Shown: positions 30,822-55,968 of the stretch, in pieces
Layout: every line of letters begins with the position of its first letter
Numbering within the stretch: the first letter of the stretch is position 1
NCBI GenBank assembly: GCA_963746315.1
Contig: CAVVAR010000002.1
Span: forward strand, 32,320-96,319
Length of the DNA stretch: 64,000 nt
DNA from: an uncultured Alphaproteobacteria bacterium
GTDB taxonomy: Bacteria; Pseudomonadota; Alphaproteobacteria; Rhizobiales; Hyphomicrobiaceae
Direction of reading: 5' to 3'
The notes under the pieces: generated by a model
What the model was told of the DNA's origin: nothing
Database searches by the model: none
Seen by the model: only the letters and a program-made list of their open reading frames with translations
Translations under genes and position numbers: made by a program

Positions 30822-31961
30822 CTAGGCCGCGCGGGACGGCAACTCGACGGTGCCGGTGCCGAGGACGGAGAGCTCGTCGTCCTGGTTGACCGCCTGCTGC
30901 TCGATGTCGACGAGGTGGCGGCCGTTCTCGACGCGCTTGCCTGTCACCTTGCCGTCGATGAAGAGGAGATCGCCTTCCGGGTTGTGGCGGCGGATCTTGC
31001 AGGTGGCGCGGCGCAGGAAGCCGGCGTCGCCCATCCAGTTGGTCATGTGGTGGGTGAGCCAGGAGCAGCGCTCGGGGCCGTAGTCGTAGGCGCCGGGTGC
31101 GCCGACCATGTGCGCGAACTCGGGCTCCCAATGCACGCGCTCGGGGCAATCCGGGATGCCGAAGCGGTTCGGGATGCCGAGGCCCTTGTGGCGGTGGATC
31201 ATCTTCCAGGCAATCTTGTTGGCGCGGATGTAGAGGCCGCCCCAGCCTTGCGCGAAAGCGATGAAACCGGTCACGGTCATCGGCCCCTTGGCCATGCGGG
31301 GCAGGGCCTCGCCGACGGCGACATCCTCGAAATAGCGCGGTGTGGCGCCGCGGATCTCTTCCTTGGCGTAGAGGCTATAGACCTTCTCCAGCTCGTCAGG
31401 CGTATAGACGCGCGGCGGCTTAGCCTTGAGCTCCTTGTATTTGGTGCCTTCCTCGCGGGCGTGATCGCGATCGGTGCGGAAGCACCAGCTGTCGGCCTCG
31501 GCGACGAGCTCGTTCCGCTGATTGTAGAATTTGACATGATAGATTTGTTGTACGGCGCGGCCGGCGAAGCGCGTCTGGTGCTCGACCAGCTCCTTAAGGT
31601 GGGCCTCGGTGCGCAGCTCGTCGTTGCGCAGCAATGGCAAATGCCAAGTCCAATCGGCACCGGCCCACATGGCGTGGACGCCGGGGAGGCCGCCGACGTA
31701 GCCCGAGATGATGCGGTCGCAGGCGAAGAGGAACGAGGGCGGGGCGACGATGGTGCCGAAGCGGGTTTTGGCGGCGTAGTCGGGATCGCACCAGAGCGGG
31801 TTGTCGTCGCCGATTCCATGGGCGTAGTGGCGGATATTGTCGCGCGTCGCCTCGTGGCACCAGGGCTCGAGCGTGTCGGTGATCGGCACGCCGATGCGGC
31901 GCCGGAGCTCGCCGAGGGTCTCGTCGGTGATCTTGGGGAAAAGCCGTCCGGCTTCGGTCAT
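30822..31961 (-). CDS. Double hot-dog MaoC-like acyl dehydratase / enoyl-CoA hydratase
   Basis: The C-terminal 380 aa of ORF 30822..32252 start at MTEAGRLFPKITDETL. The N-terminal MaoC_dehydrat_N-like part is HYAHGIGDDNPLWCDPDYA...VAPPSF. A C-terminal hot-dog part follows. Confidence 0.7.
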   Translation of the reverse strand: MTEAGRLFPKITDETLGELRRRIGVPITDTLEPWCHEATRDNIRHYAHGIGDDNPLWCDPDYAAKTRFGTIVAPPSFLFACDRIISGYVGGLPGVHAMWAGADWTWHLPLLRNDELRTEAHLKELVEHQTRFAGRAVQQIYHVKFYNQRNELVAEADSWCFRTDRDHAREEGTKYKELKAKPPRVYTPDELEKVYSLYAKEEIRGATPRYFEDVAVGEALPRMAKGPMTVTGFIAFAQGWGGLYIRANKIAWKMIHRHKGLGIPNRFGIPDCPERVHWEPEFAHMVGAPGAYDYGPERCSWLTHHMTNWMGDAGFLRRATCKIRRHNPEGDLLFIDGKVTGKRVENGRHLVDIEQQAVNQDDELSVLGTGTVELPSRAA

Positions 31962-31971
31962 GTGGATGTCC

Positions 31972-33603
31972 TCATGGCTGCTGGTTGGCGCTCGGCGCGG
32001 TCTCGCGCTCGCGCAGGATCTTGCGGTTGACCTTGCCGGCCGGCGTCTTCGGCAGCTCGGCGACGAAAGCGATCTGGCGGGGGTACTCGTGGGCGCTGAG
32101 GCGACTGCGCACGTTCTCCTGGATCTCGCGGACGAAGGCGTCGTCGCCCAGGCGCGGGGAAACCACGAAGGCCTTGACGATTTGTCCACGGGTCGGGTCC
32201 GGGACGCCGATGGCGGCGGCCTCGCGCACGTCGGGGTGCTTGAGCATGGCATCCTCGATCTCGACGGCGCTCATGGTCCAACCGGCCGAGATGATGACGT
32301 CGTCGGCGCGGCCGCCGTGATAGAAATACCCGTCCTCGTCGGTCCATCCGAGATCCTTGCTGGGGATCCATTTATCGCGACGCCAGATCTTGATCTCGCC
32401 GATGGCTTTCGGCGGCAGTGGCTGGCCGTCCGGCCCTTGCACCTCGACGCGACCGCCGGGCAGAGGCTTGCCAAGCGCACCCGCGCGCACAGGGAGATCC
32501 GCAGCGCCCGGATAGCTGGCAAGGACGACACCGACCTCGGTGGTGCCGTAGAAGCTGGCGGGCAGGCTGCCGAATGTCCGCTCGGCGAAAGCGGCGGTCT
32601 CGCTGTCCATCGGCTCGCCGGTGAAGGTGAGCTTCTTCAGGTTAAAGGTGTAGCGCGCGGCGGTGCCGGCGTTGCGCATCATGCGGTAGTGGGTGGCGGC
32701 GGCCGAGAGATTGGTGACGCGGAAGTCCTGGAGGGCGCGCATCAGGCGATCGGCGTCGAAGCGGCCGGAATAGGCGCCGATGGTGAGGCCGAGGGCGAGC
32801 GGGGCCAGCGTGCCGTGCCAGAGGCCATGGCCCCAGGCGGGCGACGAGGGACAGAAGAACTCCTCGCCGGGCCTGACGCCGGTGCCGTAGAGCGCCGCGA
32901 TCATGACGACGACGATGGCGCGGTGGGTGTGTCGGACGGCCTCGGGCAATTCACGGGTGGTGCCGGAGGTATATTGGAAGCAGGCGAGGTCGTCGGATAT
33001 CGAGTCCCAGGCGAACTCCGCCGGAAAGCGCTCCAGGTCAGCGAGGAATGCATCGTCGGCGATGACGACGTCGAGGCCCGTCATGCCCTCGGCGATGGGG
33101 GCCTTCTCGGGGTTGGTCAGCAGCACCTTCGGCGTGCAGTCGTCGATGCGGAGGCGCAGGCCGTCGGGTCCGAACAGCGTGAAGAGCGGGACGGCGATGG
33201 CGCCCGCCTTGATCGCGCCGAACAGCCCCGCGTAGAAGGCGAGGGACGGCTCCAGCATGATGGCGACGCGGTCGCCCGGCTGAACGCCACGAGATCTCAA
33301 GAAATGGGCGACGCGCGAAGAGAGCACCTTCAGGCGCTCGAACGTGATGTGCTCGTCGTGGCCGTCGGCGAAGGCGATGCGGACGGCGACGCGATCCGGC
33401 GACATGGCGTGGCGGTCGATGCACTCGTGGGCCAGATTCAATCGCTCGCGCGAACCGTCGAACAGCTCCCATAGCTTCGGGATCGAGAAATGACGCTGGG
33501 CGTCCGCGTAGGTCGAATACTCGGTCAGCTTCACCGGCCCGGTCCGTGATTGCGCGTCTCGGCTCGCCGATCCGACATCGACAGCCTTGTTGTCCAGGTA
33601 CAA
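31972..33603 (-). CDS. AMP-dependent acyl-CoA synthetase/ligase
   Basis: The AMP-binding motif is FQYTSGTTRELPEAV. Also present are YGTTE, WIPSKDLGWTDEDGYFYHGGRADDVI and PKTPAGKVNRKILR. The start is probably internal (for example GTG at 33534), because the longest ORF abuts the divergent IclR ORF. Confidence 0.85.
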   Translation of the reverse strand: MYLDNKAVDVGSASRDAQSRTGPVKLTEYSTYADAQRHFSIPKLWELFDGSRERLNLAHECIDRHAMSPDRVAVRIAFADGHDEHITFERLKVLSSRVAHFLRSRGVQPGDRVAIMLEPSLAFYAGLFGAIKAGAIAVPLFTLFGPDGLRLRIDDCTPKVLLTNPEKAPIAEGMTGLDVVIADDAFLADLERFPAEFAWDSISDDLACFQYTSGTTRELPEAVRHTHRAIVVVMIAALYGTGVRPGEEFFCPSSPAWGHGLWHGTLAPLALGLTIGAYSGRFDADRLMRALQDFRVTNLSAAATHYRMMRNAGTAARYTFNLKKLTFTGEPMDSETAAFAERTFGSLPASFYGTTEVGVVLASYPGAADLPVRAGALGKPLPGGRVEVQGPDGQPLPPKAIGEIKIWRRDKWIPSKDLGWTDEDGYFYHGGRADDVIISAGWTMSAVEIEDAMLKHPDVREAAAIGVPDPTRGQIVKAFVVSPRLGDDAFVREIQENVRSRLSAHEYPRQIAFVAELPKTPAGKVNRKILRERETAPSANQQP

Positions 33604-33609
33604 TAATTA

Positions 33610-34515
33610 TTGTATCCGTGCAACATGGCGAAGCGAGCGACAGTTCTCGATCGAGGCGACAGCGTGGACGGGCATGCTAGCGCCCCGGTCATGGCGGATG
33701 CCTCGGCGCGCGCCGTGCCGGCAGTGACGCGTGGCATCGCGATCCTGCGGTTGCTGGCCCGCAGCAGCGAGCCCCTGGGTGTGAACGCGATAGCGCGCGA
33801 GCTCGAGATCGTACCGAGCACGTGCCTCCATATCCTGCGTGCGCTGGTGGCCGAGGAGATGGTCGCGGTCGACCCGGCGACCAAGCGGTATGTGCTGGAC
33901 GCGGGCGTGCTGACGCTGGCGAGAAGCGCGTTGCGCCAGGACAGTTTCGCGCAGATCGCACAGCCGGAGCTGGACAGCTTGTCGGCGTTGCTTGGCGTGA
34001 CGGCGATTGGAGTCCGGGTGATCGGGCTGCAGCATATGATCGTGGTCGCAATCTCCCGGTCAGAGGTTGCATTCCGGCTGCATGTCGACGTGGGCAGCCG
34101 GTTCCCCGCCTTGATCAGCGCGACGGGACGCTGCCTGGCAGCTTTCGGCCAGCATTCCGCAGGCGATATCGAGCGCGCGTTCCGGGCTCTAAGGTGGGAT
34201 GCTGCGCCGAGCTACGAGGACTGGCGGGCCGAGGTCGCCTCGACCCGGCGCGCGGGGTTCGGCGTCGACAAGGGCAACTACATCCGCGGCGTGACGATCG
34301 TTGCGGCGCCGGTCATCGGCATCGAGGGCTGGATGACGCACGCGCTGGTGACGGTGGGTCTCAGCGATCAGATGCGCCGACCTGGGCCAAGCGAGGTTGG
34401 TGCCGGGTTGCGTGCGGCGGCAGCGCGGGTTTCCGCGCAGCTCGGCGGCTTCGACGGGCTGACAGGTGCGGCTGTTGCGCCAGCGGGTCCGAATGGCAAC
34501 AATGAGCGCAAGTAG
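33610..34515 (+). CDS. IclR family transcriptional regulator
   Basis: The HTH is VTRGIAILRLLARSSEPLGVNAIARELEIVPSTCLHILRALVAEEMV. A C-terminal effector domain follows. The start is uncertain (33610, 33625 or 33691). Confidence 0.8.
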   Translation: MYPCNMAKRATVLDRGDSVDGHASAPVMADASARAVPAVTRGIAILRLLARSSEPLGVNAIARELEIVPSTCLHILRALVAEEMVAVDPATKRYVLDAGVLTLARSALRQDSFAQIAQPELDSLSALLGVTAIGVRVIGLQHMIVVAISRSEVAFRLHVDVGSRFPALISATGRCLAAFGQHSAGDIERAFRALRWDAAPSYEDWRAEVASTRRAGFGVDKGNYIRGVTIVAAPVIGIEGWMTHALVTVGLSDQMRRPGPSEVGAGLRAAAARVSAQLGGFDGLTGAAVAPAGPNGNNERK

Positions 34516-34537
34516 CATTCACACAGGGAGCAGCCGC

Positions 34538-35695
34538 ATGCCGGGAGCACTCGAGGGTCTCGTCGTTCTCGATCTGACGAGCCTGTTGTCTGGGCCCTAC
34601 GCGGCGATGATGCTCGCCGATCACGGTGCCGACGTCATCAAGGTCGAGCGTAAGGGCAAGGGCGACGATGCGCGCCGGATGCCGCCGTTCGTCGAGGGCG
34701 AGAGCGCGCCATTCATGATCTGGAACCGCAACAAGCGGTCGGTGGAGCTGGATTTCAAGGACGAGGGGGACCGCGCGCGGCTGCTCGACATGGCCGACGG
34801 CGCGGACATCGTCATCGAGAACTTCCGGCCCGGAACGATGGACCGGCTGGGACTCGGCTACGAGGTGTTGAAGGCGCGCAATCCGCGGCTGATCTATGCG
34901 GCGATCTCCGGCTTCGGGCAGACGGGGCCCTATGCGAGCCGGGGCGGCTTCGATCTGATGACGCAGGGCATGTCGGGCTTGATGAGCACATGCGGGCCGG
35001 AGGAAGGGCCCCCGCACCGGCTGCCGATCGCAATCTCGGACGTGGCCGCGGGCATGTTTCTCGCGTTCGGCATTCTGGCCGCCGTCGAGGCGCGGCATCG
35101 GACTGGGCGCGGGCAGATCGTCGAGACCTCGCTGTTGGAGGCGGCAACCTCGTTCGGCGTCTATGAGGCGGCGCACTATTCGGCGCTCGGCACACGGCCG
35201 GAGCGGATCGGGCAGGCGCATCGGGGCAGCGCGCCGTATCAGTGCATCGCGGCGTCGGACGGCTACATGACGATCGGTGCGGCGCAGCAGAATTTCTGGG
35301 AGCGGTTCGCGGACATCATCGGGCGGCCAGAGCTCAAGGACGATCCGCGCTTCCGCACAAACGCCGACCGCGTCGCCAACAACACCGCGCTGATCGAGAT
35401 GATCGAGGCCGTGATGCGCACGAAGCCCAAGGCGCACTGGCTTGCAGCGATGGAGGCGGCAGGAATTCCGTGCGGCCCGGTGCTCAACTACGACGAGGTT
35501 TTCACCGATCCGCACATTCTGGCGCGCGACATGTACGTGCCGACCGAGCATGCCCGCGCTGGCACGTTCAATACGCTGGGCGTGACGGTGAAGCTCTCGG
35601 AGACGCCGGGTGCCGTCAGGTCGGCGGCGCCGACGCTCGGCCAGCACAACGACGAGATCCTGCCCGGCGGATTTACTGCCGCGCGCAAAGCCTGA
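34538..35695 (+). CDS. CaiB/BaiF family (class III) CoA-transferase
   Basis: LEGLVVLDLTSLLSGPYAAMMLADHGADVIKVE...RNKRSVELDFK...ADIVIENFRPGTMDRLGLGYE. AGGGAG lies 7 nt before the ATG at 34538. Confidence 0.9.
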   Translation: MPGALEGLVVLDLTSLLSGPYAAMMLADHGADVIKVERKGKGDDARRMPPFVEGESAPFMIWNRNKRSVELDFKDEGDRARLLDMADGADIVIENFRPGTMDRLGLGYEVLKARNPRLIYAAISGFGQTGPYASRGGFDLMTQGMSGLMSTCGPEEGPPHRLPIAISDVAAGMFLAFGILAAVEARHRTGRGQIVETSLLEAATSFGVYEAAHYSALGTRPERIGQAHRGSAPYQCIAASDGYMTIGAAQQNFWERFADIIGRPELKDDPRFRTNADRVANNTALIEMIEAVMRTKPKAHWLAAMEAAGIPCGPVLNYDEVFTDPHILARDMYVPTEHARAGTFNTLGVTVKLSETPGAVRSAAPTLGQHNDEILPGGFTAARKA

Positions 35696-35746: not shown

Positions 35747-36055
35747 ATGTCCGCAACCTATGCCGTGGTATGGCCGCGCAGCGCGCGGTCGGTCGAGGTC
35801 AAGGCGCTCGCGCCGCGGCTTGCCTCGCTCGAGGGGAAGACGGTCGCGTTCCTCTGGGACTACCTGTTCCGGGGCGACGAGATCTGGCCGACGCTCTCGG
35901 AGGAGCTCGGGCGGCGTTATCCGGGCATGCGGTTCATCGGATGGGAGGAGTTCGGCTCGACCCACGGTGACGAGGAGCACAAGGTGCTGGCGGAGTTGCC
36001 GGCTAAGCTCAAGTCCTTGAAGGTGGACGCTGTCGTCTCCGGCATGGGCTGTTGA
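35747..36055 (+). CDS. N-terminal part of a candidate selenoprotein; the TGA at 36053 lies inside a C-U-G-S-C motif (UGSC / GrdB-like)
   Basis: The ORF ends ...LKVDAVVSGMGC-TGA. The same frame continues GSCTPAVLRVSAIAEAAGVP with protein-like composition. The rest of the domain continues in ORF 36093.. after a frame change near 36113. Confidence 0.6.
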   Translation: MSATYAVVWPRSARSVEVKALAPRLASLEGKTVAFLWDYLFRGDEIWPTLSEELGRRYPGMRFIGWEEFGSTHGDEEHKVLAELPAKLKSLKVDAVVSGMGC

Positions 36056-36091
36056 GGCTCATGCACCCCCGCCGTGTTGCGGGTCAGCGCA
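36053..36091 (+). promoter_or_regulatory. Candidate bacterial SECIS hairpin following the in-frame UGA
   Basis: The upper stem CCCGC (36068-36072) / GCGGG (36079-36083) carries the loop CGUGUU and starts 12 nt after the UGA. A possible lower stem is UGC (36062-36064) / GCA (36089-36091). Confidence 0.4.
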
Positions 36092-36092
36092 A

Positions 36093-37478
36093 TTGCCGAA
36101 GCTGCCGGAGTTCCCGACCTCGTCGCTCTGCTGCGAGGGGTTCCTCGGACAAGCCAAAACGACATCGGTCGGGCTCGGATACCCGAACCTGCCACTCGCC
36201 ACCGTGCCCGGTCACGTCGACGTGCAGACGGAAGCCGATCTCAGGAAGAACGTGCTCGAGGTGACCGCCGATCTGGTCGTCGGAAACCTCACGGGCGAGG
36301 CCCCGGCAGTGGCCGTGACACGCGATCCCGATCCGAAGGAGATCGTGCTCGAAGGATCATTCGAGGACGTCAATCGTCTGTTCCTCGAGAACGGCTGGTC
36401 GGACGGGCTGCCGATCGTGCCGCCGACGAAGGAGAAGATCGCGGAGTTCCTGGCGTTCACCGATCGCGATCCCGACGCGGTGATCGGGACTTTGCTGCCG
36501 GATAATCGCAAGGCGACGGTGTGGAACGTGGCGGTCAATGGCGTGATGGCCGGGTGCCGGCCGGAGTACATGCCGATCCTCGTCGCGGCCGTCGAGGCGA
36601 TGGCCGATCCGGGCTATGGCGTCGAGCATTCGGGCAACACGCCGGGGGCCGACACGCTGCTCATTCTCAATGGTCCGCTGATCAAGCAGCTGGGCTTCAA
36701 CACCGAGCAGGGCGCGTTACGCGACGGGTTCCAGCCGAATACGTCGATCGGGCGGTTCTGGCGGCTCTATCAGCGCAACGTCGCCGGATTCATGCTGCAC
36801 CAGAACGACAAGGGCACGTTCGGCAACACGTGGCGGGTGGTGCTGGCCGAGAACGAGGACAGCCTTGCGAAAATGGGCTGGCCGAGCATCGCCGCCGACA
36901 TGGGGCATGCCGGCGCGAAGGACGGCGCCATCACCATCTCGCGCTTTACCGGGAGCAATGCGGTCGTCTCGGTGTTCGGCAATTCAGCCGAGAAGCTGGT
37001 GCCGTATCTGGGACAGGCCATCGTTACGCACACGACGTGGGAGGTGATCTTCACGGTGGGGCTTGCGACGGGGACGTACCGGCCGCTGCTGCTGCTCTCG
37101 CCGCTGATCGCCGAGGCAATCGCGCGGTCGGGCTGGAGCAAGGCCGATCTCCAACGGGCTCTGTTCGAGCAGGCGCGCATGCCGGCGCACCAGTTCGAGA
37201 AGTACCTCTGGGGCTGGACCAACCTCGTTCCAGGCAAGCGGACGCTCAACGACTGGGTGCGGCTCGGCAAGGCACCGAAGGTGTTTGCAGGAAAGGATCC
37301 CGATCGGATGGTTCCAGTGGTCACGGAGCCCGAGCACATCATGATCGCAGTGGCGGGCGATCCGATGCGCTCGAACTGCCACCTGCTGGTGCACAACGGC
37401 ATGCTCGGTTTCCCGACCACGAAACCGATCATATTGCCGGAGGGCTGGCGGCAGAAGCTCCGGAAGGCGCAGGCCTAG
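36093..37478 (+). CDS. Uncharacterised protein: first ~65 codons continue the UGSC/GrdB-like domain, the remainder is paralog 1 of an unnamed family
   Basis: The N-terminus SSLCCEGFLGQAKTTSVGLGYPNLPLATVPGHVDVQ continues the selenoprotein module. From about 36290 the family signature is GWSDGLPIVPPTKEKIAEFLAFTDRDP...NGVMAGCRPEYMPILVAAVEAMADP...LNGPL. No stop codon separates the two parts. Confidence 0.6.
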   Translation: MPKLPEFPTSSLCCEGFLGQAKTTSVGLGYPNLPLATVPGHVDVQTEADLRKNVLEVTADLVVGNLTGEAPAVAVTRDPDPKEIVLEGSFEDVNRLFLENGWSDGLPIVPPTKEKIAEFLAFTDRDPDAVIGTLLPDNRKATVWNVAVNGVMAGCRPEYMPILVAAVEAMADPGYGVEHSGNTPGADTLLILNGPLIKQLGFNTEQGALRDGFQPNTSIGRFWRLYQRNVAGFMLHQNDKGTFGNTWRVVLAENEDSLAKMGWPSIAADMGHAGAKDGAITISRFTGSNAVVSVFGNSAEKLVPYLGQAIVTHTTWEVIFTVGLATGTYRPLLLLSPLIAEAIARSGWSKADLQRALFEQARMPAHQFEKYLWGWTNLVPGKRTLNDWVRLGKAPKVFAGKDPDRMVPVVTEPEHIMIAVAGDPMRSNCHLLVHNGMLGFPTTKPIILPEGWRQKLRKAQA

Positions 37479-37482
37479 GCGC

Positions 37483-38718
37483 ATGGCGGTTGGCAGCGAC
37501 AGCCTCTGGCTCGTGATCCCGGCTGGGGAGACAGCGGCCGGAGGCTGGATCGACGACACGCTCCGGGAGCGTGCGGCGGAAAGCGGCCTCCTTTCGCGGA
37601 CGCCGCTCGCGGGGCAGTTTCCGCGACAGCGGGTGGAGGTGGTGGCGGGGCCGGACAGTGGGGCAGTCGCGCAACGGCTCTATCGCGCGCGCGGGTGGAC
37701 GGACGGGCTGCCGATCGTGCCGCCGACGACGGCGCGTGTGCGCGACATGCTGGCGTTCACGGACAGGAAGCCGAGCGACGCCCTGGGCGAGGTCGAGCCG
37801 CTGAAGGGGATAGCCACGATCGAGAAGGTCGCGAGCAATGCCGTGATGGCTGGTTGCCGGGCTGACTATTTTCCGGTCGTGCTGGCAGCGGTCGAAGCCG
37901 TGCTCGATCCGGCCTTCAATCTGCGCGGCCTCCAGACGACGGACGAGAACGCGGCGCCGCTGATCGTCGTCAACGGGCCGCTGACGCGGGCGCTCGACAT
38001 CAACGGCTCGTTCGGGGCGCTTGGACCGGGCTGGCGGGCCAATGCCGCGATCGGTCGTGCGGTGCGGCTGGTGCTCAACAATCTCGGCGGCGGGTGGCCC
38101 GGGTCGGTGTCGTTTGCGGGCCTAGGGCATGCCGGGCGCTACACGATGTGCATCGCCGAGAACGAGGTGCAGAGCCCGTGGGAGCTGCTGCACGTCGAGC
38201 AGGGCCTCGCGAAAGAGACCAGCGCGGTGACGTTGTTCCGGGCCGAGACGGCGATCAACGTGACGGGAGGGCTGGCGGAGATCGCGAGCGTGATGGGCTC
38301 GGCGGCGTCGGCCTTCCAGATCCTCTGGAACGGCATCGCCACCGTGCTGCTGTCGCCCGCCACGGCCAATGCACTCGCACGTGATGGGATGTCGAAGAAC
38401 GACGTGGCAGCCTGGCTGTGGAGAGAGGGGCGCTGGCCGGCGGATCAGTGGCGCGCGTCGTGGCTCTATCGCACGGTCGAATCGCCCGAGCGGTGGGCGC
38501 CCTGGGTGCATGCGTCGGCCGCGGACGGCGCAGTGGCACCGACGGCGCGACCGGAGGACATCACCGTCGTCGTGGCCGGCGGCGATATCCCGATCGCGCA
38601 ACATGTCTATTGCCCGTCGTGGGGTTTCCCGCCGGCACGCGTGGCGCGGGCGATCGCGTTGCCACTAGACTGGGAGAGGCTCCATGCCGAAGCACGCGAG
38701 GGAGAGAACGCAGCATGA
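37483..38718 (+). CDS. Uncharacterised protein, paralog 2 of the same unnamed family
   Basis: GWTDGLPIVPPTTARVRDMLAFTDRKP...NAVMAGCRADYFPVVLAAVEAVLDP...VNGPL is collinear with the upstream protein. It starts 5 nt after the upstream stop codon. Confidence 0.7.
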   Translation: MAVGSDSLWLVIPAGETAAGGWIDDTLRERAAESGLLSRTPLAGQFPRQRVEVVAGPDSGAVAQRLYRARGWTDGLPIVPPTTARVRDMLAFTDRKPSDALGEVEPLKGIATIEKVASNAVMAGCRADYFPVVLAAVEAVLDPAFNLRGLQTTDENAAPLIVVNGPLTRALDINGSFGALGPGWRANAAIGRAVRLVLNNLGGGWPGSVSFAGLGHAGRYTMCIAENEVQSPWELLHVEQGLAKETSAVTLFRAETAINVTGGLAEIASVMGSAASAFQILWNGIATVLLSPATANALARDGMSKNDVAAWLWREGRWPADQWRASWLYRTVESPERWAPWVHASAADGAVAPTARPEDITVVVAGGDIPIAQHVYCPSWGFPPARVARAIALPLDWERLHAEAREGENAA

Positions 38719-39632
38719 GCGGTAAGTGCGACGTGGCGGTGGTCGGCGGTGGGATCACCGGGCTCACGGCCGCGCATCATGCGGCACTGGAGGGCGCCTC
38801 GGTGGTGCATTACGTCGGGTCCGGTGTTCCGGGCGGCCTCGTCGCCAACGTCGGTGAGCTCGAGGGATTTCCGGCGGCGGGTAGCGTGGCCGCGCTCGAC
38901 GTGGCGCTGCGGCTCACGGAGGAGAACGAGCGGCTCGGTGTCGAGGTGGTGCCCGAGGATGTGGCGCGGCTCGAGGCGACCGGATCGCTGTGGCGGCTCG
39001 CGACGGAGGCGGGTACGCGCGAGGCGCGAAGCGTGGTGGCGGCCACCGGCGCGCGGCTTCGGATGATCGACGTGCCGGGAGCGGCGCGGCTCACCGACAA
39101 GGGCCTGTCGCAATGCGCATGGTGCAACGGCAGCCTTTATCGCGGGGCCGAGGTCGTGGTGATCGGCGGCGGCGATAGCGCCCTTCAGGAGGCGCTCCAT
39201 CTCGCGAAATATGCATCGCTGGTGACGATCGTGACACGAGGGGAGACGCTGAAGGCGCGGCGCTCGCTGGTCGACCGGGCTGCCGACAACGAGCGCATCG
39301 CGTTCCGGTGGGAGACGGATGTCGTCGAGGTGCTGGGCGGCGACAGCGTGACGGGGATCAACGTACGCGAGCGGACCGCGGGAGAGGTGGAGCACATCGG
39401 CTGCGCCGGTGTCTTCGTCTATATCGGGCTCGCGGCCAACGCCGACTGGCTCGCGGGGCAGATCGATCGCGACAGTGACGGGTGTGTGCTGACGGATGCG
39501 AGCCTTGCGGCGTCGGCAGCGGGAGTGTTCGCGGCCGGTGCCGTGCGCCGGGGCTATGGCGGGCGCCTGACACATGCCGTCGGTGAGGCAACGACGGCCG
39601 CGCTCGCTGCGGCGCGCCATGCGGCGGCTTGA
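38715..39632 (+). CDS. Thioredoxin-reductase-like FAD/NAD(P)H pyridine nucleotide-disulfide oxidoreductase
   Basis: The FAD motif is DVAVVGGGITGLTAA. The redox dithiol is CAWC (LSQCAWCNGSLY; compare CATC in TrxB). The NADPH motif is VVVIGGGDSALQEA, and GVFAAGAV is also present. The ATGA start overlaps the upstream stop codon. Confidence 0.8.
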   Translation: MSGKCDVAVVGGGITGLTAAHHAALEGASVVHYVGSGVPGGLVANVGELEGFPAAGSVAALDVALRLTEENERLGVEVVPEDVARLEATGSLWRLATEAGTREARSVVAATGARLRMIDVPGAARLTDKGLSQCAWCNGSLYRGAEVVVIGGGDSALQEALHLAKYASLVTIVTRGETLKARRSLVDRAADNERIAFRWETDVVEVLGGDSVTGINVRERTAGEVEHIGCAGVFVYIGLAANADWLAGQIDRDSDGCVLTDASLAASAAGVFAAGAVRRGYGGRLTHAVGEATTAALAAARHAAA

Positions 39633-39838
39633 TAACGGCTGCGAAATCGTGAATGGCCGTCTACGGCTCTTCACTAAAAATCAACCAATCTCATTCAGGC
39701 TCGACGGTCGCGAGAGGGCTGCCCGGGGATCACTTGCCCCGCTCCAGCCCAAATCGCGTCGCAATCCGGCCGTCGCCCACCCGTATCCACAGAAGTCGGG
39801 GAGCGACCGGATGCGATCGGACCGGGGTAGAGCGTGTC

Positions 39839-40873
39839 ATGCGGCACAAGACAATGATCGGAGCGCTGCTCGTCGTGGGCGCAGGAGTCCAGGGGGCAAC
39901 TGCGGCACCACTCGGCGACGAGGAGCTGAAGTCCCTGGTCGGCGGCAAGACCGTCACGATCGAGACGCCTCTCGGATTGCCCATCACTGTCAATTACGGT
40001 GCAAACGGCATGATGACCGGCACCACAGGTACGGCGCTCGGCGTCTATCTCGGGGCCGTGAAGGACCGTGGACGCTGGCAGATCAAAGGCGGAAAGCTTT
40101 GCCAGAAGTGGTTCAAGTGGCTGTCGGGTGAGCCGACGTGCCTGACGCTACGCCAGGAGGGCGCCAAAATCGCCTGGAGAAGTGACGAAGGCCAGACCGG
40201 AATGGCGATGATCGAGTCGGGGCCGCCGGCTTTCGACGGCGTGACCGCGTCCGGTCTCGGGCTTCCGCCACCAGCTCCCCCGCCGAAAAAATCCTCTGAC
40301 GTGGACCGTGTCGATGGGACCGGCTCGAAGCCTGTCACATCCGTTCCGCGGGCCAGCGTCGTGCCGGCGAGGCCGGCAGCAGCGAGCCGTGAGTCTGACG
40401 AGAAAAGCGTGCGTCCAGTGGCTCGGCCGGCACTGGTCGAAGCGCCGCGTGAGGTGCCGCGCCCGATGCGCGCGGTCGCGGACGGGGCCCGGCCACAATT
40501 CGCGCTGGCGAGCCTGGCGCCGGTCGGACCGGCTCGGCCAACTCAGCCTGTGCCGGAGGCGCCGTCATCGCAGGTCAGCTCTCCACCCAGCGACGAGCCG
40601 CCGGCCGATCCGCTGTCCATGCGCAGTGCCGGGGATGCCGCGGCGATCGCGGCGCTCGAGTATCGCTGGTGCCTCTCCAACGCATTCGCAAAAGGCCCCG
40701 CGCTGCCGACCTACGCGACGATCGCTGCTCCCGAGCTGGTGAGCGGGCCCAGTCTGCTGGCGGTGGCGCAGGAGCAGGCCTACGACGGCGAGCTGCCGTT
40801 GCACGAGGCCTCATGTCTCACGGAAGAGCCAGCGATCGCACTGTTCGGCAACCTCGGTCCGGCCGAGCACTGA
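39839..40873 (+). CDS. Secreted hypothetical protein with a Pro/Ala-rich C-terminal half
   Basis: The signal peptide is MRHKTMIGALLVVGAGVQGATAAP. A globular N-domain (GRWQIKGGKLCQKWFKW) is followed by a low-complexity P/A/S-rich region. Confidence 0.55.
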   Translation: MRHKTMIGALLVVGAGVQGATAAPLGDEELKSLVGGKTVTIETPLGLPITVNYGANGMMTGTTGTALGVYLGAVKDRGRWQIKGGKLCQKWFKWLSGEPTCLTLRQEGAKIAWRSDEGQTGMAMIESGPPAFDGVTASGLGLPPPAPPPKKSSDVDRVDGTGSKPVTSVPRASVVPARPAAASRESDEKSVRPVARPALVEAPREVPRPMRAVADGARPQFALASLAPVGPARPTQPVPEAPSSQVSSPPSDEPPADPLSMRSAGDAAAIAALEYRWCLSNAFAKGPALPTYATIAAPELVSGPSLLAVAQEQAYDGELPLHEASCLTEEPAIALFGNLGPAEH

Positions 40874-41021: not shown

Positions 41022-42182
41022 ATGGATCGCGCGTTGGGCGTTCCCGTCATTCGGCGGATACTTAGCTACATCGACGCCAACAGCACGGCCATGGCCGAGC
41101 GGCCGTGGAAGAACGATGTCACCGCCTATTACTCGCCGGATCATCTGAAGGCGGAGACAGACGTCCTCTTCCGGCGTCATCCGCTGCTGATGGGTTTGTC
41201 GTGCGACTGGCCGAAGCCCGGCGACTGGCGCACCGACGATCTGGCCGGTGTGCCGATCCTGATCGCACGAGGCGGCGACGGTGTGTTGCGGGCATTTCTC
41301 AACGTCTGCCGACATCGCGGGGCCAAGGTTGCACAAGGTTGCGGCCACGCCAGCGTGTTCTCATGCCCCTATCACGCTTGGACATATGGCCTGGACGGCC
41401 GACTGCGCGGCATTCCCGACGAGCAAGCGTTCGAAGGCGTGAGGGCGGAGCGACCGGGCTTGACCGCGCTGCCGCTGGCCGAGTGGAACGGCCTCGTGTG
41501 GGTGATGCCGACGCCGGCGGCGGACGGCGTGACGAGCCTCGACATCGAGCCCTGGCTCGGCGGTCTCGGACGGGAGCTCGCGTCCTACGGGGCGCAGACC
41601 TATCACCTCTACGAGAAGCGTCTCGTTCCCGAGACGATGAACTGGAAGGTGCTCGTCGACACGTTCCTCGAAAGCTACCATATCGGCTTCCTGCACAAGG
41701 ACAGCCTGACGTCGATCCTGATCGGCAACGTGGCGGACTTCGAGGCCTTCGGAGCCAATGGACGCATCGTTTTCCCGCGCCGAAAGATCGAGCGGTTGCG
41801 AGGGATGCCCGAGAGCGAATGGGACCTGATGTGGAACTCGGCCACGGTCTACTGCCTGTTCCCGAATACGCTGTTCGTGACGCAGGGTGATCATCTCGAG
41901 ATTCATCGCGTTTTTCCGGCAGAGGGCCGGCCCGACCGGGCGGTCATGGAGACGTCGTTCTATATTCCAAAGCCGGTCGCCAATGACGACGAGGAGCGGC
42001 ACTGGAAGGCCAACCTCGACCTCCTGATGCAAGTGGTGCTCGGCGAGGACTTCCCCACCGGACGCACGATGCAGATCGGCTTTACGTCGGGAGCGCAGGA
42101 TCACACGATCCTCGGCCGCAACGAGCCGGCGATGATCCACTATCACCAGTCGCTGAGGCGGGCGCTCGGATTGCAGGTGTGA
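41022..42182 (+). CDS. Rieske [2Fe-2S] aromatic ring-hydroxylating oxygenase, alpha subunit-like
   Basis: The Rieske motif is CRHRGAKV...CPYHAWTY. The mononuclear iron motif is ESYHIGFLH. Confidence 0.85.
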   Translation: MDRALGVPVIRRILSYIDANSTAMAERPWKNDVTAYYSPDHLKAETDVLFRRHPLLMGLSCDWPKPGDWRTDDLAGVPILIARGGDGVLRAFLNVCRHRGAKVAQGCGHASVFSCPYHAWTYGLDGRLRGIPDEQAFEGVRAERPGLTALPLAEWNGLVWVMPTPAADGVTSLDIEPWLGGLGRELASYGAQTYHLYEKRLVPETMNWKVLVDTFLESYHIGFLHKDSLTSILIGNVADFEAFGANGRIVFPRRKIERLRGMPESEWDLMWNSATVYCLFPNTLFVTQGDHLEIHRVFPAEGRPDRAVMETSFYIPKPVANDDEERHWKANLDLLMQVVLGEDFPTGRTMQIGFTSGAQDHTILGRNEPAMIHYHQSLRRALGLQV

Positions 42183-53631: not shown

Positions 53632-55968
53632 GTGCGAGTGAAGTTCTGGCGAAAAAAGAACGAAAGACTGGTCGCCCGCGTCAATTCCGTCATCGAGACG
53701 TCGGAGCGCGTGCGGAAGTCGCTGCCTCCCGCTCCCTCGCGGGTGACGATCGACACTTCCTATGTGGAAATGGCCGATTATGACGAGGCCTACGACGACC
53801 AGTGGTCGGACGACGATCAATTCGACGATGCCATCGTAGAGACCGAGGCCGGGGCGGACGAGGTCGCCGGCTTGCAGGCTTGGGACGATGTCGAGCCGGC
53901 GTCAGATGCGATGTCCGGCGAGGATTCCCCGCAGATTGCCGAGGCACTGAGAAACGAAGCTGCGCAACGTGCGGCGCAAGCCGAGCTCCAATTGCTGGCG
54001 CTGCGCGAGGCGGAAATGGCTCGCGAGCGCGACGAGCGCATCGAGGAAGCTCGGGCCGAGGCGCGAGCGCGGGAGGAAGCGGCACGACAGGCGGCGGAAG
54101 CCGAGCGCGAGGAGATGGTTCGCAAGGCGGCCGAGGCCGAGCGCGAGCTGGTGGAGATGCGCGCGGCGGCGGCGGAGCGCGAGCGGATCGCACAGGCCGA
54201 AGCGGAGGCACGGGCTCGGGAGGAAGCGGCACGGCTGGCGGCTGAAGCCGAGCGCGAGGAGATGGTTCGCAAGGCGGCCGAGGCGGAGCGCGAGCTGGCG
54301 GAGATGCGGGCGGCAGCGGCGGAGCGCGAGCGGATCGCGCAGGCCGAAGCGGAGGCACGGGCTCGGGAGGAAGCGGCACGGCTAGCGGCTGAAGCCGAGC
54401 GCGAGGAGATGGTTCGCAAGGCGGCCGAGGCGGAGCGCGAGCTGGCGGAGATGCGGGCGGCAGCGGCGGAGCGCGAGCGGATCGCGCAGGTCGAAGCGGA
54501 GGCGCGGGCGCGGGAGGAAGCGGCATGGCTGGCGGCTGAAGCCGAGCGCGAGGAGATGGTTCGCAAGGCGGCCGAGGCGGAGCGCGAGCTGGCGGAGATG
54601 CGCGCGGCAGCGGCGGAGCGCGAGCGGATCGCGCAGGTCGAAGCGGAGGCGCGGGCGCGGGAGGAAGCGGCACGACAGGCGGCCGAAGCCGAGCGCGAGG
54701 AGATGGTTCGCAAGGCCGCTGAGGCCGAGCGCGAGCTGGCGGAGATGCGCGCGGCAGCCGAGGAGCGTGAGCGGATCGCGCAGGCCGAAGCCGAGGCGCG
54801 AGCGCGGGAGGAAGCGGCGCGGCAGGCGGTCGAAGCCGAGCGCCAGGAGATGGTTCGCAAGGCCGCTGAGGCGGAGCGCGAGCTGGCCGAGATGCGGGCC
54901 GTGGCGGCGGAGCGCGAGCGGATCGCACAGGCCGAGGCGGAAGCACGGGCGCGGGAGGAAGCGGCGCGACAGGCGGCCGAAGCCGGGCGCGAGGAGATGG
55001 TTCGCAAGGCGGCCGAGGCCGAGCGCGAGCTGGCCGAGATGCGCGCGGCAGCGGCGGAGCGGGAGCAGATCGCGCGAGCCGAGGCCGAGGCGCGGGCGCA
55101 GGAGGAAGCGGCGCGACAGGCGGCCGAGGCCGAGCGCGAGGAAATGGTTCGGGAAGCTGAGGCGGCCGAACGTCGTGTGGCAGAGATGCGGGCGGCAGCC
55201 GAGGAGCGTGAGCGGATCGCGCTTGCCGAGACCGAGGCAGTCGCGCGTCACGCTGCGGAGCTCGAGCAACACTTGGCGGAGGTCAAGCCGGCGGGGATTG
55301 ATGAGTCGGCCGAGAGCGAGCCGAGAGAAACTGCCGCGGATCCGTCTGAGCCCGTTACGGGAACTGGGAAATTGGAGCCCTCGGCTGCAGTCGCGCTGAA
55401 GTCGCGTCTGGCACAATCGAGAGCCGCCACAACCGGAAACGCGCAGAAAACGCCTGGAAGCGCCGCACGAAGCACAGGACAAGCAAGCAGCGCGTTGGGC
55501 AGCGTGGGAGAGAAGTCAGCCCGGTCAGCGGAATCGGTGGCGGCGCACGCCGACCGTCAAACACAGGCTGATGCCGCGGCCGCTCCCGCGGGGGCTGCCA
55601 CTGCGAACAAGCGTCGCGACCGCCGGGTTTCGTCGCAGATGCCCGCGACGCTCTGGCGAGAGGGTGTCGGGCATCTCGCGTGCACGCTGCGCGACCGGTC
55701 GTCGAGTGGCGCGCGTCTGGAATTCCGCCGCGACCAGCTGATCGATGGCCTGTCGGAGCTGGTGGTTGGCGACACGCTGACACTTCACCTGAGCTCGGCC
55801 CAGGAGAAAACCAGTGTCGCCTGCGTCGTCGTCTGGGTGGCAGGAAACCGATGCGGAGTTCGCTTCTCCGGGCAGTTCAGGACCGAAGCGCCTGCTCCGC
55901 GCCGCTCGTTGCGGGGTAGCGCGGACAAGGCGCAGCCAAAGCCGGCGTCACGCTGGTCGCTGCGTTGA
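53632..55968 (+). CDS. Repeat-rich coiled-coil protein with a C-terminal PilZ (c-di-GMP-binding) domain
   Basis: It has an acidic N-terminus and 8 copies of a 49-aa E/A/R-rich unit. The C-terminal PilZ motifs are RRDRR (RxxxR) and DRSSSG (DxSxxG), about 26 residues apart. Confidence 0.75.
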   Translation: MRVKFWRKKNERLVARVNSVIETSERVRKSLPPAPSRVTIDTSYVEMADYDEAYDDQWSDDDQFDDAIVETEAGADEVAGLQAWDDVEPASDAMSGEDSPQIAEALRNEAAQRAAQAELQLLALREAEMARERDERIEEARAEARAREEAARQAAEAEREEMVRKAAEAERELVEMRAAAAERERIAQAEAEARAREEAARLAAEAEREEMVRKAAEAERELAEMRAAAAERERIAQAEAEARAREEAARLAAEAEREEMVRKAAEAERELAEMRAAAAERERIAQVEAEARAREEAAWLAAEAEREEMVRKAAEAERELAEMRAAAAERERIAQVEAEARAREEAARQAAEAEREEMVRKAAEAERELAEMRAAAEERERIAQAEAEARAREEAARQAVEAERQEMVRKAAEAERELAEMRAVAAERERIAQAEAEARAREEAARQAAEAGREEMVRKAAEAERELAEMRAAAAEREQIARAEAEARAQEEAARQAAEAEREEMVREAEAAERRVAEMRAAAEERERIALAETEAVARHAAELEQHLAEVKPAGIDESAESEPRETAADPSEPVTGTGKLEPSAAVALKSRLAQSRAATTGNAQKTPGSAARSTGQASSALGSVGEKSARSAESVAAHADRQTQADAAAAPAGAATANKRRDRRVSSQMPATLWREGVGHLACTLRDRSSSGARLEFRRDQLIDGLSELVVGDTLTLHLSSAQEKTSVACVVVWVAGNRCGVRFSGQFRTEAPAPRRSLRGSADKAQPKPASRWSLR
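54055..55255 (+). repeat. In-frame tandem repeat, 147-bp unit, about 8 copies
   Basis: The anchor GAAGCCGAGCGCGAGGAGATGGTT recurs at 54097, 54244, 54391, 54538, 54685, 54832, 54979 and 55126, an exact 147-nt period. Copies differ by only a few substitutions. The last unit is more diverged. Confidence 0.9.

Follow-up and report, generated by a model that had tools for sequence, protein, structure and literature searches.

The region described here lies within a 64,000-nucleotide stretch of contig CAVVAR010000002.1 (assembly GCA_963746315.1, positions 32,320 to 96,319 of the forward strand) from an uncultured alphaproteobacterium of the Hyphomicrobiaceae. The whole of this stretch is referred to as the window; its G+C content is about 65% and the closest relatives of its proteins are found in Hyphomicrobiaceae metagenome-assembled genomes (MAGs). 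Our subject is a module of adjoining genes that comprises a selenoprotein gene of the UGSC family, two paralogous copies of an unnamed domain and a gene for a thioredoxin-reductase-like (TrxR-like) flavoprotein (Table 1). A preliminary description of this DNA had proposed that two open reading frames (ORFs), 36093..37478 and 37483..38718, encode tandem paralogs that flank the selenoprotein module. The paralogy was borne out, as the two products, the first of them from about residue 94, align collinearly with 34% identity over 367 residues (E = 6e-46), and the four motif blocks that had been quoted for them were all found in both. The junctions are also as tight as had been described: the stop codon of paralog 1 (TAG, 37476-37478) is followed by a 4-nt spacer, GCGC, and by the ATG of paralog 2 at 37483, and the end of paralog 2 overlaps the start of the flavoprotein gene in an ATGA (38715-38718), through which the latter gene is translationally coupled to paralog 2. 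No terminator-like sites were seen within 33.4-40.2 kb. Based on the collinear alignment and the layout of the junctions, the paralogy and the tight coupling of the two genes are real.

The proposed gene structure, however, had to be corrected. ORF 36093 does not constitute a gene of its own; the C-terminal part of the UGSC domain makes up its first ~62 residues, which run into paralog 1 without a stop codon. The paralogs do not flank the selenoprotein module either, because the N-terminal part of UGSC, the TGA codon for selenocysteine (Sec), the C-terminal part of UGSC and paralog 1 form one frame in the relatives. Paralog 1 is fused to the C-terminus of UGSC and paralog 2 follows. The Pfam model PF24696 (172 positions) matches the window locus in two pieces, one in ORF 35747 and the other, in a different frame, in ORF 36093. 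In 16 related loci, the same four parts make up a single in-frame reading frame of ~576 aa. An uninterrupted frame of ~576-582 codons with a single in-frame TGA was seen in a Hyphomicrobiaceae-like MAG (L001), in Vineibacter terrae (L002) and in a Burkholderiales MAG (L003), and the Vineibacter record holds one 582-residue product that runs across the TGA. Moreover, close relatives of paralog 1 have a precomputed PF24696 match and bear the NCBI name 'UGSC family (seleno)protein'. Sequence comparison indicates a UGSC selenoprotein of ~576 aa, with paralog 1 as its C-terminal domain. In the reconstructed gene, the N-terminal ~180 residues match the UGSC family (PF24696, NF041046), complete with U-G-S-C, TGA and a selenocysteine insertion sequence (SECIS), whereas both models span only the ~150-170-aa UGSC domain and leave the ~390-aa unnamed domain outside any model; with NF041046, the reconstructed protein scored 46 bits (E 4e-12), below the 125-bit cutoff. 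In L001, L003 and most database entries, gene callers cut the fusion gene at the TGA into an ORF of ~102 aa and another of ~466 aa that starts 18 nt downstream, and the full 582-aa product is on record only in the NCBI entry for Vineibacter (L002).

The N-terminal ORF (35747..36055) ends in VVSGMGC-TGA, and its same-frame translation beyond the TGA reads GSCTPAVLRVSAIAEAAGVP; the motif SGMGC-TGA-GSCTPAV of the window is U-G-S-C with an in-frame TGA. Among the UGSC domains in the fetched loci, ~80 of 84 have a TGA at the Sec position, and Cys variants occur there in a Sphingomonas MAG (L079, DCGSC) and in one further domain (CGTST). The TGA at 36053-36055 is assigned as a selenocysteine codon because coding conservation extends across it, because the UGSC domains show this pattern of TGA and Cys variants, because a conserved hairpin follows and because of the NCBI naming. 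The hairpin, CCCGC-CGUG(U/C)U-GCGGG, starts 11-12 nt past the UGA; its core is the same in 16 of 16 fusion-type loci, third-codon positions included, and the flanking codons vary synonymously. Its folding energy was no better than that of shuffled sequence (z = 0.15) and an Rfam scan of the window gave no match, and the SECIS call therefore rests on conservation. A tRNA scan of the window also gave no match.

Table 1. Features of the UGSC module and of the genes before and after it, in positions of the window.
Feature	Position	Strand	Evidence
IclR-family regulator, first gene of the syntenic block common with the closest relative L004	33610..34515	+	Pfam HTH_IclR and IclR_C
Family III coenzyme A (CoA)-transferase, local neighbour	34466..35695	+	PF02515 positions 1-366 of 366, E 4.6e-134
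UGSC N-terminal part, 102 codons, ending VVSGMGC	35747..36052	+	PF24696 2-92, E 9.7e-9; own UGSC hidden Markov model (HMM) 3-103, 205.8 bits
In-frame Sec TGA (U of UGSC)	36053..36055	+	Pfam model and coding conservation across it in 16 loci
SECIS-like hairpin; core CCCGC-CGUGUU-GCGGG at 36068-36083	36063..36088	+	Nucleotide conservation, 16/16 fusion-type loci
Single inserted base (in TTCCCG), +1 shift between the UGSC halves	36111..36116	+	Alignment with L001 and L003
UGSC C-terminal part and linker, frame of ORF 36093	36117..36305	+	PF24696 113-167 on ORF residues 8-62, E 4.7e-4; own HMM 122-190
Paralog 1 (copy a), fused to UGSC; invariant Cys of GVMAGC at ~36555-36557	36306..37478	+	Relatives are 465-468-aa ORFs with the PF24696 C-terminal part
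Paralog 2 (copy b), standalone, 411 aa; Cys125 at 37855-37857	37483..38718	+	Family alignment, AlphaFold model
TrxR-like flavoprotein, 305 aa, CAWC at residues 134-137	38715..39632	+	Pyr_redox_2 positions 2-291 of 291

In the window, the UGSC reading frame is not intact and the domain is split over two frames. DNA alignment with L001 and L003 revealed one extra base, GTTCCCGACC in the window versus GTCCCC-ACT in the relatives, and the removal of any one base in 36111-36116 restores AAGVPTSSLCCEGF and the 576-aa product. The extra base is missing from all 16 related loci that were compared. Across the 6-kb operon that is syntenic with the closest genomic relative, L004 (82.5% nucleotide identity), it is the sole within-gene indel that is not a multiple of three, and the assembly is not generally indel-prone since ~17 other genes of the window match their Pfam models over the full length. 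As sequenced, the selenoprotein gene is either mis-assembled, owing to a rare consensus error, or a pseudogene of very recent origin. A pseudogene would mean a real 1-nt insertion, a UGSC domain truncated after ~123 residues and a dead module. The presence of the base in the sequence, the soundness of the neighbouring genes and the singularity of the lesion in the comparison with L004 are in favour of such a reading. However, no further decay was seen (paralog 1 is 94% identical to intact relatives and the downstream genes are intact), the lesion is located in a C-run, which is a typical context for consensus errors, and one error in 64 kb is indistinguishable from one mutation; we consider a pseudogene possible, though on the unlikely side. 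The two frames could also be joined by a programmed +1 ribosomal frameshift at CCC-G. The shift that is required is indeed +1, and a CCC-N proline codon is a known slippery context, but the A site has neither a stop nor a rare codon and nothing at this point is conserved. As the extra base occurs in none of the 16 relatives, programmed frameshifting is scarcely credible and was rejected.

Judged by their sequences, both paralogs belong to a very large unnamed protein family with a shared domain of ~350-400 aa. An exhaustive HMMER search of 1.84 billion representatives recovered 6,979 clusters at 50% identity with E <= 1e-3, 1,987 of which reached E <= 1e-30; among the candidates scored, the clusters at 90% identity numbered more than 7,400 for paralog 2 and more than 6,100 for paralog 1. 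All of the named standalone members are labelled 'hypothetical protein'. The preliminary description could assign the paralogs to no named family, and that statement holds after Pfam, NCBIfam, PDB sequence and profile, and Foldseek searches. Neither Pfam nor NCBIfam gave a match for either paralog beyond the fused UGSC piece, single-copy members of the family had no NCBIfam match, and a Pfam scan of all 66 members of a joint alignment at E <= 5 returned only the UGSC piece and scattered noise. Against the PDB sequences, neither a single-sequence nor a profile search found anything (best profile E 1.5). An AlphaFold2 model of paralog 2 that was based on the 66-sequence alignment had a mean pLDDT (predicted local distance difference test) of 85.7 and a pTM (predicted template modelling score) of 0.89, and Foldseek found no match to it in the PDB at E <= 1e-3. 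A confident assignment to a characterised family, which the preliminary description had named as refuting its idea, was thus not seen in these searches. The best Foldseek matches, the top twelve, were all class I fumarate hydratases (E 0.012-0.4, TM 0.16-0.34, root-mean-square deviation 12-22 Å) and were not significant. In the two-subunit form of these Fe-S enzymes, alpha (~280 aa) and beta (~190 aa) do parallel the unnamed domain and UGSC in size. However, class I fumarases have three cluster ligands, whereas the unnamed domain has one invariant Cys, and on the basis of the model the resemblance does not appear to be meaningful, being due to chance or very remote.

Across both paralog groups, 34 alignment columns are invariant and include W72, D74, G75, P77, P81, N119, A123, G124, C125, T153, N174, R192, R195, E226, W233 and R253 in the numbering of paralog 2. 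When conservation was rechecked with 77 distant single-copy members added, Cys125 of VMAGC was kept in 110 of 110 sequences, which confirms the earlier claim of an invariant Cys in this motif, and Gly124-Cys125 was invariant in the same set; the signature A-x-N-A-V-M-A-G-C-x-P, D-G-L-P-x-x-P-P, N187/G191/R192, E226 and W233 were kept as well. In the model, Cys125 is placed in a short turn between helices 113-122 and 127-141 (pLDDT ~95-98). A short turn at the start of a helix is a typical position for reactive thiolates. In the single-copy form of the family, conservation reaches at least 90% at 48 positions, of which both paralogs of the window retain 36. Copy b retains 46 of the 48 and is 38% identical to the single-copy family, while copy a departs at 12 and is 30% identical; both keep the Cys and the core polar residues. 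Because copy b is nearer to the single-copy family and copy a departs at a quarter of the near-invariant positions, their sequences point to sub-functionalisation after duplication, with a canonical copy b and a diverged copy a. The N-terminal ~55 residues of paralog 2 were considered as a possible UGSC remnant, which was ruled out: with the iterated UGSC HMM and the HMMER filters off, E exceeded 0.5 for all 35 N-termini.

Linkage between the domain and UGSC was assessed in 80 loci from species-representative genomes and three more from protein look-ups, with our own HMMs of the domain, the flavoprotein and UGSC, the last of them iterated with the TGA read through. A UGSC gene was present in 74 of 82 non-redundant loci, and among the eight exceptions there are four in which the contig breaks off at the domain, leaving 74 of 78 testable loci. 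The co-occurrence with UGSC-type genes that had been proposed as a check is therefore conserved in other genomes, which span Proteobacteria, Methylomirabilota/Rokubacteria, Binatia, Dehalococcoidia, Acidimicrobiales and Thermodesulfobacteriota. In the linked loci the domain adjoins UGSC or is fused to it, UGSC nearly always has the TGA, and the median gap between the UGSC and domain genes is 96 nt. Two architectures can be distinguished. In the fusion type (type A; the window, L001-L017 and L023), UGSC(U) is fused to copy a, copy b follows and the motif is SGMGC-U-GSCTPAV; it was found in Alpha- and Betaproteobacteria, Methylomirabilota, one Deferrimicrobiaceae MAG and Acidimicrobiales. In the single-copy type (type B; L019-L083), a standalone UGSC of ~175 aa with the motif D-U-GSCTSWS or AD-U-GSCTACS adjoins a single, shorter copy of the domain; both genes lie on the same strand, and either may come first. 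The hosts of this type are Dehalococcoidia and other Chloroflexota, Binatia, Rokubacteria/Methylomirabilota, Beta- and Deltaproteobacteria, Entotheonella and others. A TrxR-like gene follows the module in 12 of 16 testable fusion-type loci.

Further arrangements were seen among the relatives. A Thermodesulfobacteriota MAG (L019:373-8412) has two full modules in tandem, each with UGSC(U)::domain and a second domain; a further UGSC-like gene lies between them and no TrxR-like gene was seen there. Several genomes have multiple loci, e.g., L028, L042, L059 and L060 in one Chloroflexi MAG. The database representatives include single-chain domain-domain fusions (e.g., P0250) and single-chain UGSC(Cys)::domain fusions. 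At L018:7290-9164, one of the four loci without a UGSC gene within 8 kb, a gene for a DsbA-like protein of the thioredoxin fold adjoins the domain instead. In one type A locus, SelA (L-seryl-tRNA(Sec) selenium transferase) is encoded among the close neighbours.

Pfam families were counted among the neighbouring ORFs, 78 around type A loci and 76 around type B loci. The commonest in type A, with 3 of 13 fusion-type loci apiece, were CoA-transferase III, DctP and Rieske oxygenase; in type B they were TctC (6), luciferase-like monooxygenase (4) and Amidohydro_2 (4). No conserved accessory gene, i.e., for a thioredoxin, a PrdH-like protein or a CoA enzyme, emerged from these counts, in which no family exceeded 3 of 13 fusion-type loci or 6 of 76 type B neighbour ORFs. 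CoA-transferase III was found near the module in two single-copy loci in addition to the three of fusion type, and CoA chemistry does not belong to the conserved context of the module. Since the neighbours are so heterogeneous, the conserved unit is the module itself, which occurs within varied contexts of catabolism and organic-acid uptake.

UGSC was described as a 'selenoprotein of unknown function' (PMC1976440). A 'UGSC/Unknown_1 fusion' in the Global Ocean Sampling (GOS) selenoproteome is described in Zhang & Gladyshev 2008 (PMC2398784, Fig. S1A) as UGSC joined to a conserved unknown domain with a conserved Cys. It is very probably the same as the fusion in the window. With the NCBIfam models, one standalone UGSC protein matched TIGR01917 (E 1.6e-4), GrdF, TIGR01918 and GrdH over the Sec region. 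Among 28 diverse UGSC domains, TIGR01917 (GrdB) was matched by 17 (best E 1.1e-5), GrdH by 15, TIGR01918 by 14, GrdF by 11 and PrdB by 7, always in the Sec region; each of the unrelated families was matched by at most one member. Pfam GRDB (PF07355) gave no match to UGSC, and the link was seen only with the NCBIfam/TIGRFAM models. As the scores are far below the cutoffs and Pfam GRDB is unmatched, UGSC is taken, from these profile matches, to be distantly related to the Sec-bearing part of selenoprotein B, of which it would be a miniature version, and not to belong to that family.

These matches bear on the suggestion, made in the preliminary description, that the paralogs serve as large substrate-activating subunits in the manner of the Grd and Prd reductases. 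It was supported in part: the analogy now has the weak matches of UGSC domains to GrdB-type models behind it, but paralog 1 turned out to be a domain of the selenoprotein itself, and no homology with GrdE or PrdA was detectable in either paralog or in the single-copy members with Pfam or NCBIfam, even at E <= 5 or E <= 0.1. In D-proline reductase, the substrate is bound on PrdA and attacked there by the Sec of PrdB, and the enzyme is regenerated by a separate protein (PMC11229817). The UGSC module resembles Grd (GrdB with GrdE) and Prd (PrdB with PrdA) in having a UxxC selenoprotein subunit that is encoded alongside a larger partner, in the weak but consistent matches of UGSC to the GrdB, GrdH, GrdF and PrdB models and in a partner with a single key Cys, which is essential in PrdA (C421; PMC11229817) and invariant in the unnamed domain. 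It also has a dithiol-reductase gene in the cluster. Known grd operons include trxB and trxA, and a dedicated supply of reductant is present here in the form of the ATGA-coupled TrxR-like gene. On the other hand, UGSC has ~175 aa compared with 240-436 aa, its partner domain has no detectable similarity to GrdE or PrdA, the UGSC modules have no equivalent of GrdA, GrdC/D, PrdC or PrdH, and their hosts are largely aerobic bacteria of soil and water rather than fermenting anaerobes.

A strict analogy with these reductases would make Gly124-Cys125 a site of cysteinolysis at which a pro-enzyme cleaves itself, leaving an N-terminal pyruvoyl group that binds an amine substrate. PrdA is cleaved at a Cys (T420|C421) and needs its selenoprotein partner for processing (PMC11229817), which, together with the invariance of the Gly-Cys pair in the 110 sequences and the resemblance of UGSC to PrdB and GrdB, would fit this scheme. 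However, there is no GrdE or PrdA sequence similarity, the neighbourhood counts contain no small, conserved PrdH-like gene, and Cys125 is modelled in a turn between helices and not in the strand-turn that is typical of known self-processing sites. The helix-turn-helix context in the model mildly favours Cys125 being a thiol rather than a pyruvoyl precursor, and we regard self-cleavage as quite improbable.

The flavoprotein has a complete Pyr_redox_2 architecture with a CxxC motif, CAWC, at residues 134-137, and its best relatives in the PDB are all thioredoxin reductases (E 4.7e-54). In its full two-domain architecture for flavin adenine dinucleotide (FAD) and NAD(P)H and in the canonical position of CxxC, it is like the low-molecular-weight thioredoxin reductases and the C-terminal module of AhpF. 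It differs from the former in that it scores below the TrxB equivalog cutoff (225 bits with TIGR01292, cutoff 343), has CAWC where the usual thioredoxin reductase motif is CATC, and is dedicated to the operon with no thioredoxin gene alongside; in the window and in L001-L003, no thioredoxin gene was found beside it. This arrangement could also be that of a relay for thiol/selenol repair or detoxification, in which Cys125 is oxidised as it reduces a small molecule or protein (of the sulfoxide, peroxide or arsenate type) and UGSC is a seleno-thioredoxin that is recycled by the TrxR-like protein. The UxxC motif and a Trx-like fold suggested earlier in the GOS paper (PMC2398784) are compatible with it, as are an operon that has a TrxR-like but no thioredoxin gene, the single invariant Cys predicted at a helix start and the DsbA-like neighbour at the UGSC-less locus L018. 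Nevertheless, the only recurrent outside matches of UGSC are to GrdB and PrdB and not to thioredoxin-fold families, the surrounding genes serve catabolism and transport and not stress responses, and several paralogous modules per genome suggest diversification of substrates and not housekeeping repair, all of which makes a repair relay unlikely.

The unnamed domain is probably the substrate-handling part of an uncharacterised selenium-dependent reductase. There is, in our opinion, an even chance that this is a Sec-dependent reductase like Grd and Prd, organised as a three-protein module with the unnamed domain in place of the pyruvoyl subunit, for which we infer the catalysis, the stoichiometry and the substrate as follows. 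The module would consist of the ~576-aa selenoprotein (an N-terminal UGSC domain of ~180 residues and a C-terminal copy a of ~390 residues), copy b and the TrxR-like flavoprotein. Copies a and b may form a pseudo-symmetric heterodimer, to which a homodimer would correspond in the single-copy systems; a hetero-oligomer of the two paralogs, as the preliminary description envisaged, is plausible, and the existence of single-chain double-domain proteins such as P0250 is consistent with a dimer of two copies. The dimer would bind its substrate in a predicted pocket made of Asp74, Asn119, Cys125, Asn187, Arg192, Glu226 and Trp233. The selenolate of UGSC, presumed to lie close to Cys125, could then attack the bound substrate or an adduct of Cys125, and the neighbouring Cys of UxxC would resolve the product to a selenenyl-sulfide. 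Electrons would pass from NAD(P)H to the FAD and the CAWC dithiol of the flavoprotein and on to the UxxC of UGSC, re-reducing the selenenyl-sulfide, the final acceptor being the substrate that the domain dimer holds around Cys125. The unnamed domain would thus be a functional replacement of GrdE/PrdA, not a homologue. Judging from the variety of catabolic genes nearby, the module probably acts on a small organic acid or an acyl-CoA, which would vary from lineage to lineage.

Several observations weigh against this proposal. The scores with the GrdB and PrdB models are far below the cutoffs (~20 bits versus 65-600), and the similarity is seen mainly in standalone UGSC proteins, the reconstructed fusion of the window having no match. 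As the domain resembles neither GrdE/PrdA nor anything else, a substrate-binding role for it is argued only from its position. No TrxR-like gene is near the module in four fusion-type loci and in nearly all of the single-copy loci. P0246, a fusion of 567 aa, reads GVGGGASG and has lost both the Sec and the resolving Cys, yet it keeps the Cys of VMSGC. P0273 (1254 aa) and P0317 (1226 aa) are predicted to be secreted; they are free of Sec and have a signal peptide, two copies of the domain and the Cys motif SGNCGCGLCT. Such a form, extracellular and without selenium, fits poorly with a cycle driven by NADPH and TrxR. The secreted Sec-free variants, the variant without redox residues and the type B loci without a dedicated reductase argue against one uniform mechanism across the family. 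Moreover, the activity of the module is deduced from sequence comparison, and UGSC is still listed as function-unknown, including in a 2026 review (PMC1976440, PMC13188914). An LPKTG sortase motif was also seen in P0273.

The same variants would suit a domain without a redox role, acting as a scaffold or as an enzyme with a Cys nucleophile (hydrolase, lyase or isomerase) and only regulated or protected by UGSC. P0273 and P0317 are Sec-free multi-domain proteins predicted to lie outside the cell, P0246 has dispensed with the redox residues and not with the domain Cys, and the weak top matches in Foldseek were hydro-lyases and cyclic amide hydrolases. These matches, however, were not significant (E >= 0.012, TM <= 0.34). 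In addition, the great majority of UGSC partners (~80/84) have retained Sec, which is costly and typical of catalytic redox sites, and the 95% linkage and the repeated independent fusions indicate a joint active unit. A purely non-redox role is therefore improbable.

As to the surroundings of the module in the window, the IclR regulator and the family III CoA-transferase lie upstream on the same strand, with a promoter-like site at 33578-33607 before the regulator gene. Further upstream and divergent (30822-33603, minus strand) are genes for a MaoC/hot-dog dehydratase and an AMP-binding acyl-CoA synthetase, and downstream (41022-42182, plus strand) lies a gene for the alpha subunit of a Rieske ring-hydroxylating oxygenase. 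Directly after the TrxR-like gene, an ORF of 406 aa (39653-40873, plus strand) encodes a protein whose N-terminal segment is hydrophobic and precedes a Pro/Ala-rich region; neither Pfam nor NCBIfam gave a match. It was considered as a third paralog and ruled out, there being no similarity to the paralogs and no family match. Elsewhere in the window (53632-55968, plus strand), an ORF of 778 aa lies in a strongly skewed stretch of 72% GC. It contains eight tandem copies of a 147-bp repeat (54058-55229, 91% matches) that encodes a Glu/Ala/Arg-rich, coiled-coil-like unit of 49 aa, and its C-terminal segment is PilZ-like by eye only.

Taken together, the idea of the preliminary description holds for the most part once the gene structure is corrected. 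Since 2007-2008, UGSC has been counted among the most abundant prokaryotic selenoprotein families of ocean and freshwater metagenomes, and reviews up to 2026 give it no function. The present analysis adds that UGSC has a near-obligate partner domain, which comprises ~7,000 clusters at 50% identity and is matched by neither a Pfam model nor a structure, that the UGSC-domain pair often has a TrxR-like gene of its own and that UGSC resembles the Sec-bearing part of GrdB/PrdB. It also exposes an annotation problem: the TGA is routinely taken as the end of an ORF, which divides the fused gene in two, and the second paralog invariably goes by the label hypothetical. An orphan selenoprotein family thereby becomes a three-protein system that is open to expression, reconstitution and substrate screening. 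We tentatively suggest, as a possibility that goes beyond the single module, that the domain and UGSC constitute an unrecognised class of Sec-dependent reductases, widespread among aerobic and facultative bacteria of soil, freshwater and the sea, in which a subunit with a new fold and one catalytic Cys replaces the pyruvoyl subunit of the clostridial glycine and proline reductases and many paralogous modules per genome are tuned to different organic acids. If true, a function would thereby be assigned to a selenoprotein family that ranks among the most abundant of those without a known function in aquatic metagenomes.

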